A stretch of DNA of 39,479 nucleotides from Macrostomum lignano. Its lineage: Eukaryota. Below, piece by piece: positions 35,252 through 37,639 of this stretch. Location of the stretch: assembly GCA_002269645.1 (NCBI GenBank), contig NIVC01003652.1, forward strand, positions 1 to 39,479, in the 5' to 3' direction. Under the pieces are notes generated by a model. The model saw nothing but the letters and a program-made list of their open reading frames with translations, searched no databases and was not told where the DNA came from. A program made the position numbers and the translations under genes. Each line of letters begins with the position of its first letter. The first letter of the stretch is position 1.

Positions 35252-35883
35252 TCAATCGCGTATGGGATCACCTGTTAGATCTCGAACAGGCTCGCACGTC
35301 CCGTCACAGTCGTACGTCCCATATAGCGGATGCCCAACGCACAGCATCGTGACGAGTCGACCTTGCAACACGTGACCATGCCGAAGACGTCTCCGTACTT
35401 CGGGGTCGTACGCATTCACAGGGTCGTGACCAGCCAGAATGAGTAGTCTGTCTCGCCAATGGTGACTCACTATCGATTGATACTTCTGGTTGACATTGAA
35501 GGTGTCCCCATTGATCAACCGTAGAAGCGGAACCTGATAAACAATACACATTCACGTACATCATTATCAACAATATTGATAATTTACATTAATTTGTATA
35601 ATTTATTATCAACAAGCTATATATGTACTAATTTACTCACCATGGCGTCAGACTTAGGATCGAACAGCTCTGGTCGAACCTCGTCAATGAACATGACACG
35701 ATGTACAGTGATGTCCAACGGATCGAATAGAAACGTGTTGGCTGTAGTTCGTGACGGGACTATATTGACAACACGAGTTTCACCGCAATGCGCAGCTACG
35801 CTATGAGTTTTGCCAACACCAGGTGGCCCCCATAGGTACACCACACCTTTACGTTGGCGAAGAGCTGCGCACACGGCTCGCAT
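35252..35883 (-). CDS. Superfamily-3 helicase domain (parvovirus NS1/CRESS Rep-like), split by a 107-nt intron (35534-35640)
   Basis: Walker A GPPGVGKT (35806-35829) and Walker B VMFIDE. Donor ATG|GTGAGT and acceptor TTTATCAG|GTT join in frame to VPLLRLINGDTFNVNQKY (B'-like), LLILAGH (C-like, lacking the canonical Asn) and EVRRRL (Arg-finger-like). Confidence 0.8.
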
Positions 35884-37021
35884 CGTTGGACATCCGCGTC
35901 GTTCATGTAGCGGTCTGTCGACATGTTATACATCAGCGTCGGCGGAAGCGGCGGCGACGGCGGCATTGTTGGCGGGGGCGGCGGCGGTGGCGGCGTTGTC
36001 AGTGGCGGCGGCGGCGGCGTCGGCAGCAGCATTAGTCAGATTATTAGCGTCAGTCTCGCGTTCATTGGTCTGACTGTCAACACCAGTCGCGTTGTTGTCA
36101 TCACTAGATACGTCGTGGATGGTGCGATCGCGTGTATGCCGATTTATAAAATGAGCACAACACGCACAACCAGTGAGACGCTCTAGATTAATTCGACGTA
36201 TCTTTTGTACGCGTTGAAATGGACGAATCATCTCGTGCTTACAAGAAACGTGGCGCATCAGAAAATCGTCCTCTGGAGGTGGTGACTACTAATTCGCTAT
36301 GATTTTCAATCCAATGATACGCTGACACGAGCATGCTACAGTCGGACATATTTACATTACGTAGCATGGCGCCGCCATCGTGTCTTGTAACTGAGGCTAA
36401 CGCATTCTTGAAATTTCGGACGCCGGCGATAAGGATTCGGCAATTGGTGTCGCTTACTATATATACTGTATATTCGGGTCTGTAGACAGTATCTGGTGAA
36501 TGATGGTATATAACTGGTAGCCAGACATGTTGCGTGGTGTTCGCATGTACAACGTAACTCCGCACTAGTTATAATCCAGATCGTCTTCGGCCACATGCTT
36601 AGATTGCCTGTGACGATTAAGTGTCTTATGTATCAGTTCATCGTCATCCAGCATGTTGGGCGAATTTCCGGTTAGATTGGCGACAACAAGTGCATTACAG
36701 TGACCGCGCAATGCCATGCAGAGTCGCACTTTAAGCTGGTCAGCATCAAGCACACCGGACAGTTCCACGACGTGGTGTATCTGAGTGCGTAACGGTCTTC
36801 GCTTGAAAACGCGTTAAGTGGTTCGACGTCCCGATTTCTATGGAAACGTATTGGCCCGGAGGCTAGTGCATATCCGGGTTGTACATCCCTTGGGACAGTC
36901 GGACGCGCGTTTCTATTGGCATACGCGGCGGTGTTAGCGGCTAGATTGGCTGCAGCAGTCAAACTGATGTCATCGACAGACAACTGTGTCAGCGATTGAC
37001 TACTGATTGACAATGAGTCAT

Positions 37022-37065
<44 letters not shown>

Positions 37066-37639
37066 GGTGTCATAGTCGCTGCCAACTCAGCCGTCGCCGC
37101 CGCCGCCGCCGACTCATTCGCCGCATCGCTAGTCGTCGCAGCCGCCTCCAAACCAGGTGTCGCGTCTGGTACAGTCAGCGACGCACCTGTTGTTGATGGC
37201 GACTGTACAAGCTTTGCCCTCGCCTCATCCCTCGCTCGTATCGCCGCCAATGTCCTGTCTTTCATTGTCGCCGCATTCGCCGCTGCTGCCGCCGCAATCG
37301 AGACAGACGCCTGGCGTGACAATGCGTGCGCCCGGATACGATCGGTCGTATGCGAACTAACAGAACTGCTAGAGTCACTGCCGCTAGACAATCTCGTCCG
37401 AATTGGTCCACGGACGTATGATTTGGTCGTCAGATTGGGCGCGCCTATTGTACTGGACGCATCAGACTGCTGCGTATCGTCTGGCAACTGTCCAGTGTGT
37501 CGTTGATAGGGCGACGGAATTGCGCTCGACAACTGTGACAAATATGTATCTGATACAATTTCGCGTCGGAGCGCATTATCTGTTGACGTCGCCTTTTACG
37601 ACACGGTTTTGCTCGTCGGCGAAGCAAACGACGCGCCAT
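35884..37639 (-). pseudogene. Disrupted N-terminal part of the helicase gene (Ala/Ser-rich, several frameshifts and in-frame stops)
   Basis: Consecutive ORF pieces 36672..37541, 36565..36768, 36239..36565 and 35926..36258 tile the interval. The last is in frame with the helicase across one TAA. TATAAATA near 37686-37693 and CAAGATGGCG at the ATG (37639). Confidence 0.45.

Follow-up and report, generated by a model that had tools for sequence, protein, structure and literature searches.

What kind of sequence is a virus-like helicase gene in the genome of a flatworm: a host gene, a stranded viral fragment, or part of something mobile? The window analyzed here, all 39,479 nucleotides of contig C3652 (NIVC01003652.1) of Macrostomum lignano, raises this question by carrying, on its minus strand, the motifs of a superfamily 3 (SF3) helicase. 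A preliminary description of this DNA, made from its letters, had proposed an intron-containing helicase of the type found in ssDNA viruses, and suggested either a new Rep-like lineage or a domesticated or decaying endogenous viral element (EVE). The first of these suggestions may still hold. The second does not fit our results, as the gene proved to be a core gene of a mobile, precisely inserting family that also carries a tyrosine-recombinase-like (YR-like) gene.

The window contains a decayed copy of a spliced Rep-like gene

The helicase motifs lie between 35252 and 35913 on the minus strand, as do all parts of the gene described here: YLWGPPGVGKT (Walker A), MFIDE (Walker B), LLRLINGDTFNVNQKY (B'), LLILAGHD (the motif-C strand) and RRRL. 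Walker A, Walker B, B', motif C and the Arg finger fall within ~110 residues, as in SF3 helicases, and the motifs quoted earlier were all found. The usual Asn of motif C is replaced, as had also been noticed, and the Rep of Vientovirus likewise lacks it. The Walker A-Walker B part (35641-35913) forms the end of a big exon and is separated from the last exon (35252-35533), which encodes motif B', the motif-C strand, the Arg-finger region and the stop, by a 107-nt GT-AG intron (35534-35640) that splits the helicase after Walker B. A second GT-AG intron, of 202 nt, lies upstream of the big exon (37655-37856) and is preceded by an Ala/Asp-rich exon whose start is undefined and which is frameshifted in this copy (37857-38460). 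Within the big exon, a Ser/Ala-rich low-complexity 5' part (36784-37654), broken here, is followed by the remnant of an HUH-fold domain and a helical region (36130-36783), in which the catalytic His pair and Tyr are absent and which contains frameshifts and a stop. The preliminary description had called the upstream ~600 codons low-complexity; this is true of the Ser/Ala-rich part, whereas ~230 codons correspond to a predicted folded domain of HUH type.

The window copy is dead. It contains stops (near 37.6, 36.6 and 35.9 kb) and at least four frameshifts, the indels responsible lying close to 37.6, 36.8, 36.5 and 36.3 kb. An upstream stretch of ~600 codons, thought to start at ATG 37639, is not open in the window: the frame from this ATG is 64 codons long, with 39, 25 and 14 stops in the three frames. 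Relatives enter the big exon through the 202-nt intron, and the ATG was rejected as the start of a 600-codon ORF. We also rejected a second small intron that had been suggested near the 3' end, because the exon ends at a TGA after GDPIRD in all ten copies in which this end was found, and no run contained such a joint.

Other copies of the gene are open. With E <= 0.1 as the limit, a search of the 764-Mb genome with the helicase exon returned at least 41 matches, of which 12 are 94-100% identical; a second probe returned at least 38. Five of 12 close copies have open frames of 661-706 codons, and the big exon of the window copy is 88-91% identical to the open copies. The helicase occurs at ~40 places in several lineages, and three deep lineages, ~30-50% alike, can be made out.

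Among the copies fetched, the GT-AG signals of the 107-nt intron were kept in 12 of the 12 junctions found, and those of the 202-nt intron in nine of nine. In a public run (X10), one contig covers the last exon and skips both introns, the shorter one at exactly 35534-35640; this run is presumed to be RNA, and no listed run was recorded as RNA. All 40 listed variants of X10 are common to copies C267b, C2362 and C157a, compared with 17 of 40 for two other copies, indicating that the spliced RNA came from open sister copies and not from the window copy. Runs X5 and X6 contained no splice joint, and run X4 covered the introns without a joint. Distant family members in the same genome encode the same helicase in one exon, which fixes the splice junction independently. 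The possibility that the intron is not spliced and that the exon behind it lacks SF3 similarity is contradicted both by the spliced contig and by the SF3 motifs that follow the intron.

P0001, which is listed as a Macrostomum lignano protein, has the same sequence as an ORF in a distant family member. Outside this genome, three metagenomic fragments (P0003-P0005) were among the five matches of a full-database phmmer search. One of these, P0005, is a 1.3-kb ENA contig encoding an intronless relative of 332 residues that has the same plan of dead HUH domain plus helicase and retains a single His in motif II; the family thus extends beyond this genome. In a word-index protein search, the C267 protein had no matches and a family profile (A1, built from ten natural ORFs) found P0001 and P0005 only, and searches of viral contigs and of metagenome contigs gave no match, all of which are weak negatives. 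A tree of family members and P0004, computed with P0005 and viral Reps left out and accompanied by long-branch warnings, dates and places nothing.

Rep is predicted to join an HUH fold lacking catalytic residues to an SF3 helicase

Profile A1 matched Vientovirus Rep best among PDB sequences (E 9e-4), in an alignment that spans all helicase motifs. Similarly, when an intronless member was modeled (pLDDT 61), Foldseek placed Vientovirus Rep first, BPV E1 second and AAV2 Rep68 fifth, and the helicase scored 0.94 to RNA_helicase/CRESS clusters in the ESM Atlas. The best PDB match by sequence and by fold is therefore an ssDNA-virus Rep, in agreement with the type of helicase first proposed. Judged from the models, the helicase fold by itself does not separate SF3 from AAA+: when the helicase alone was compared with VIA, ClpB tied with Vientovirus Rep at Z 10.2. 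Single helicase sequences matched FtsH at the P-loop in the PDB. In Pfam and the PDB, single sequences gave generic AAA P-loops.

Folded alone, the N-domain of a sister copy gave a model with pLDDT 76 and pTM 0.72. Ranks 1-15 of its VIA list were all HUH nuclease or origin-binding domains (Z 9.7-6.6), including duck circovirus Rep (Z 9.7, rmsd 3.4, 101 aligned) and SV40 LT (Z 9.5, rmsd 2.7, 103 aligned); the first unrelated row had Z 6.5. The BFVD matches that had names were CRESS Reps. Foldseek against the PDB gave no row at E <= 0.001, with pMV158 RepB the best at 1.3e-3. On this model, motif II lies in the strand NWCGVTLY and motif III in the helix VKNALVSVT. Across 13 aligned rows, none had a Tyr in the motif-III helix or an HUH His pair, and two had one His. 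In predicted models of sister copies, the domain is fused to the SF3 helicase, and we predict that the N-domain is an HUH fold without catalytic residues. The earlier failure to find an HUH nuclease was correct insofar as no HUH motif is readable, and is amended by the HUH fold in the predicted model.

The HUH-fold domain is not drifting and is under purifying selection. Its dN/dS was 0.19-0.46 in nine of ten pairs, which are not independent and of which the tenth is nearly identical, and 0.11 between distant families. The first helicase exon had values of 0.14-0.33 in nine of ten pairs, again not independent, and the Walker A-Walker B part of the window copy gave 0.14-0.23 against four other copies. 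Values for the last helicase exon (exon B) were 0.65-1.08 in five of six close-copy pairs, and that for the low-complexity 5' part was 1.0 in the single pair tested. Because the helicase of this Rep is nearer in sequence to CRESS Reps, the loss of catalysis in the HUH domain was likely independent of the loss in polyoma- and papillomaviruses.

A tyrosine-recombinase-like gene is linked to Rep

In 13 of 21 distant contigs, a second ORF is found at a distance of 1-7 kb from Rep, convergent with it in some lineages and in tandem in others. It encodes an N-terminal zinc finger and a nearly invariant R..K..R..Y set; the His of H-x-x-R is not kept. There were 42 matches to this YR-like gene in 764 Mb, making chance linkage to Rep negligible, with several of the contigs being haplotypes of one locus. 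The gene was found without Rep at three loci, and 8 of the 21 distant Rep contigs are without it. In the window's subfamily, the stretches fetched contained the YR-like gene in only 3 of 10 helicase contigs, which indicates that most of these copies are non-autonomous.

The YR-like protein scored 0.94 to Phage_integrase clusters in the ESM Atlas, with only 122-135 of 256 features shared. The Pfam/NCBIfam matches were sub-threshold: Phage_integrase in two of ten members (best E 0.009) and XerC (E 0.061). YR-like profiles gave chance-level rows only against PDB sequences, and a search of protein databases found no matches among longer proteins and returned no Crypton sequence, a weak negative. 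None of ten members matched DUF3435 at E up to 5, and DUF3504 gave no match. From its sequence, the identification of the second gene as a tyrosine recombinase is moderately supported, and the 6-bp core at both ends of the elements (see below), as in Cryptons, fits this identity.

Rep and the YR-like gene are the long ORFs of compact elements of 8-10 kb. The longest copy, of ~49 kb, has a dozen other ORFs that are short, acidic or zinc-finger. By sequence, no capsid, packaging ATPase, protease or polymerase was detected among 16 ORFs searched with Pfam and 12 searched with PHROGs. At one locus (L143, C957:89.5-97.7 kb), 2 kb downstream of the YR-like gene, there are Polinton/adintovirus-like ORFs that by eye look capsid-like and packaging-ATPase-like; in the fetched stretch, C1267 does not share them past 88.3 kb. 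Conventional Crypton-type YR ORFs, also recognized by eye, adjoin two elements (L130, C150:337-338.6 kb; L144, C1267:155.8-157.1 kb).

The elements insert precisely at a short T-rich word

The elements are multi-copy, measure 8-50 kb and are inserted precisely at a short T-rich word. Their similarity stops sharply at two unlike ends, L and T, that share a TTTTGT core. The T end reads TTTTGT-TCCTAAAAAG...; its motif occurs at 38 places, and of 30 loci inspected by eye, 15 had the exact core. At the L end, which reads ...GGCTACAA-TTTTGT, 19 of the 24 rows inspected by eye had the core. At least eight contigs have facing L and T ends, 5-28 kb apart, and the order YR-Rep-T is found in C157, C2367 and C1811. 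As in Cryptons, which have direct repeats of 4-6 bp and no terminal inverted repeats (TIRs), direct repeats are present at both ends without TIRs; C157, which has T ends on both sides, is the exception. Long TIRs, as first read from that copy, were overturned by the L/T pairs and the empty sites. L-T pairs of 5.5-6.8 kb in C1597, C1045, C172 and C1387 are likely non-autonomous miniature versions.

Empty alleles were found for four insertions, the first three of them with a single core. For the 40-kb tandem in C267, three of four contigs with the same flank are empty, and for C2362 both of two contigs are empty, with TTCTGT as the target. In this second case, the empty alleles in C2559/C3361 read TTCTGT whereas both filled ends read TTTTGT, reflecting either a SNP or tolerance of a core mismatch. 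The C2367 element is inserted in a host repeat, of which 4 of the 11 copies yielded the probe, every one of them empty. For C283, a compact element (10 kb) belonging to another lineage, C105 provides the empty allele (one of one), with ACAAA as the shared word, the same word read on the other strand. In both C2367 and C283, Rep and the YR-like gene lie inside an insertion that has an empty allele. Filled and empty alleles coexist in one assembly, which argues that the family was recently mobile. The joint between the tandem units of C267 is L-core-T, the shape expected of an excised circle; an element inserting into an end already present could also have produced it, and no free circle was seen. 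At C157:495-590 kb and C2093:69-139 kb, clusters of nested, tandem and inverted copies suggest self-insertion or local amplification.

An AT-rich palindrome of 230-330 bp (z -23) lies upstream of Rep in the window's subfamily. Its arms are self-complementary in each copy although the subfamilies differ. Our guess is that it might serve as a replication origin.

The window locus is old and rearranged

The window copy is an old, rearranged one, as seen from a T end without its outer bases, a reversed L end at 33.65 kb and a LINE upstream. The T-type end (8706-8775, plus strand) has lost its outermost bases and the TTTTGT core, and is followed by a 21-bp tandem array (8805-9594, plus strand), as it is in the family. 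Next comes a block of acidic low-complexity accessory ORFs (9600-13550, minus strand), which is directly downstream of Rep in uninterrupted copies. The L-type end (33643-34412, minus strand) is reversed relative to the standard layout, nested or rearranged, and consists of the core (33643-33648), a conserved stretch of ~170 bp and a 13-bp satellite. The LINE-like insertion upstream of Rep (38963-39479, minus strand) is absent from contig C2898. Where the element is uninterrupted, Rep is next to the equivalent of window 8.8-13.5 kb, and the 21 kb that separate it from that block in the window are foreign or nested DNA. Contig C1811, a haplotype of this locus that matches the window at 99.9%, continues beyond the LINE with a palindrome at 299.6 kb and, at 308.7-309.1 kb, a YR-like gene that is broken; no L end was found past that gene up to 325 kb.

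Window positions 15000-33611 contain repeated units of ~7 kb, with SET-domain ORFs at 17643-18404 (Pfam E 6e-15) and 28921-29715 (8e-16) and C2H2 zinc-finger ORFs. The block also has tandem arrays of 57 bp, repeats of ~1.1 kb that lie in either orientation, and a GC-rich palindrome of 266 bp (15559-15824). The SET ORF has 30 genome matches, nine of them identical on different contigs. As this block (15-33.6 kb) is found on other contigs and had no YR or Rep match inside, we treated it as a separate insertion; it is probably another mobile element, with a histone-methyltransferase-like gene. Elsewhere in the window are a Gypsy-type gag/protease/integrase-zinc-finger fragment with internal deletions (22731-24458) and a 5' exon of host listerin (Ltn1) followed by a 42-bp x 15 array that starts in or beside the coding frame (1343-2801).

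A model of replication as circles and its alternatives

Considering the spliced structure, the open frames of sister copies, selection, the ends, the empty sites and the linkage of the two genes, we lean toward the view that these are recombinase-integrating DNA transposons copied as circles by a nuclease-dead CRESS-type Rep; the circles, the origin and the replication are what we infer. The YR would recombine L with T at the 6-bp core, releasing a circle. Rep would use its dead HUH fold to bind an origin, for which the AT-rich palindrome lying upstream of the gene is a plausible candidate, and, in the manner of SV40 T antigen and papillomavirus E1, would act as a ring helicase that unwinds this origin to give host polymerases access. 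The YR would then insert circles at TTTTGT-like words, and shorter copies without either gene would be moved in trans. More tentatively, the elements could represent an undescribed class of self-replicating eukaryotic transposons, in effect an integrative plasmid of animals: a CRESS-virus descendant without a capsid, which gave up rolling-circle nicking, retained Rep as a helicase that binds the origin and acquired a YR. YR transposons with Rep-like helicases may occur in oomycetes; a literature search aimed at them found nothing. No matching element was found in the papers searched. Because a similar gene pair may exist in oomycetes, and the search did not extend to Repbase, we group the elements with the YR DNA transposons.

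The ends and 6-bp core match the description of Cryptons in the available text of PMC3212892, and many copies (5-7 kb L-T pairs) are without Rep. Both speak for Crypton-like cut-and-paste elements that once captured a CRESS Rep as cargo or as a helper that unwinds DNA in excision or repair, with no replication of circles. We regard this as unlikely, since Rep is under purifying selection in three deep lineages, compact elements keep it beside the YR-like gene as a long ORF, and loss of catalysis with the fold kept is the pattern of origin-binding initiators, as the accessible part of PMC6668415 presents it. That the elements are integrated genomes of a dsDNA flatworm virus, with an initiator like those of small DNA tumour viruses, an integrase and virion genes too divergent to recognize, seems improbable. 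The initiator architecture does parallel that of polyoma- and papillomaviruses, elements of up to ~49 kb offer a dozen unexplained ORFs, and three relatives are metagenomic (P0003-P0005). The ORFs searched, however, gave no match by sequence to virion or polymerase genes, the accessory ORFs are short, acidic or zinc-finger, the compact elements have little room, and viral contigs contained no match.

A lone CRESS- or parvovirus-like fragment, decaying or domesticated by the host, would explain the decay of the window copy and would be one of many, Rep EVEs being common in eukaryotes according to the part of PMC3198968 available. It is very improbable in view of ~40 places in several lineages, defined ends, a linked YR-like gene and selection on a nuclease-dead domain, and it is contradicted by the empty alleles. 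A family of cellular AAA+ ATPases amplified by segmental duplication is hardly tenable: the generic P-loop matches of single sequences and the AAA+ proteins that tie in the structural list speak for it, but it is contradicted by the pairing of an HUH-fold N-domain with the helicase, and Rep is the best match of both the profile and the whole-length fold, no lid domain follows the Arg finger, and the genes sit inside mobile elements.

Cryptons and Starships are proposed to excise as circles. An element with its own initiator-helicase, as in our model of recombinase-integrated, Rep-copied circles, offers a testable answer to how such YR DNA transposons multiply. A nuclease-dead HUH domain with an SF3 helicase is not otherwise known outside polyoma- and papillomaviruses. 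Its occurrence here with CRESS-type helicases in integrating elements would provide a present-day counterpart to the change from rolling-circle to unwinding-only replication and, if true, an independent replay of the step behind the initiators of those viruses. As the host is a culturable model flatworm and the family is recently mobile and transcribed, circles, ATPase activity and origin binding are directly testable.

Comparison with known systems

Like Reps encoded by CRESS-DNA viruses (Vientovirus of the Redondoviridae, 9pqq; circovirus; nanovirus), the Rep described here has an HUH fold, a helical linker and an SF3 helicase. Unlike them, it lacks the catalytic His pair and Tyr and has a long disordered N-terminus, introns and Cys pairs; and in contrast to CRESS viruses, the element is far larger, has no capsid seen by sequence and integrates via a separate gene. 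Polinton-like viruses resemble the present family as integrating elements of 10-40 kb with a YR and an SF3 helicase; jelly-roll capsids and a packaging ATPase define them, TIRs are part of the Polinton plan, and their helicases are not known to be HUH fusions. Compared with these and with Polintons, our elements have no capsid or packaging-ATPase match by sequence, asymmetric ends and an HUH-fused helicase. Replitrons are not known to have a helicase, and Helitrons have one of superfamily 1 (Pif1). Both resemble the present elements as eukaryotic transposons with HUH-fold proteins, but their HUH is an active transposase (PMC10288648, in the part available), whereas here it is dead, with neither the Tyr nor the His pair in 13 rows, and is accompanied by a YR-like gene. 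Planarian PEVE/PIVE and the geminivirus-like transposon of truffle are, like this family, repeats of flatworms or other eukaryotes that carry Rep-like genes of ssDNA-virus type; as covered by the accessible text of PMC3198968, where the word "recombinase" is absent, they differ in having TIRs and parvovirus/papillomavirus-type helicases or DDE transposases.

The large T antigen of polyomaviruses and E1 of papillomaviruses combine an inactivated HUH domain with an SF3 helicase (PMC6668415, in the portion available). Our Rep shares this combination and has both among its top fold matches; it differs in a helicase sequence nearer to CRESS Reps and in being encoded by an integrating element. Cryptons, as described by Kojima and Jurka (2011; PMC3212892), share with our elements a YR gene, the mostly missing long TIRs, 6-bp direct repeats at the ends, a proposed circle and animal hosts. 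That paper, in which "helicase" does not occur, gives them a YR and at most a DNA-binding domain or a peptidase. In place of this single-enzyme plan, a conserved Rep-helicase lies inside elements with empty sites, and the elements reach 8-50 kb and have a YR without a DUF3504 match. Starships are similar in being large, with a YR near one end, a short target word at the ends, clean empty sites and a circular intermediate (PMC10104507, in the part available). They are fungal and carry a DUF3435 Captain, and the accessible text describes no replication gene and does not contain the word "helicase"; here the host is a flatworm and ten YR-like members are without DUF3435. Collectively, the elements depart in a defining feature from CRESS Reps, Helitrons, Replitrons, Starships and single-enzyme Cryptons: they are Crypton- and Starship-like at their ends, and T antigen- and E1-like in their Rep.
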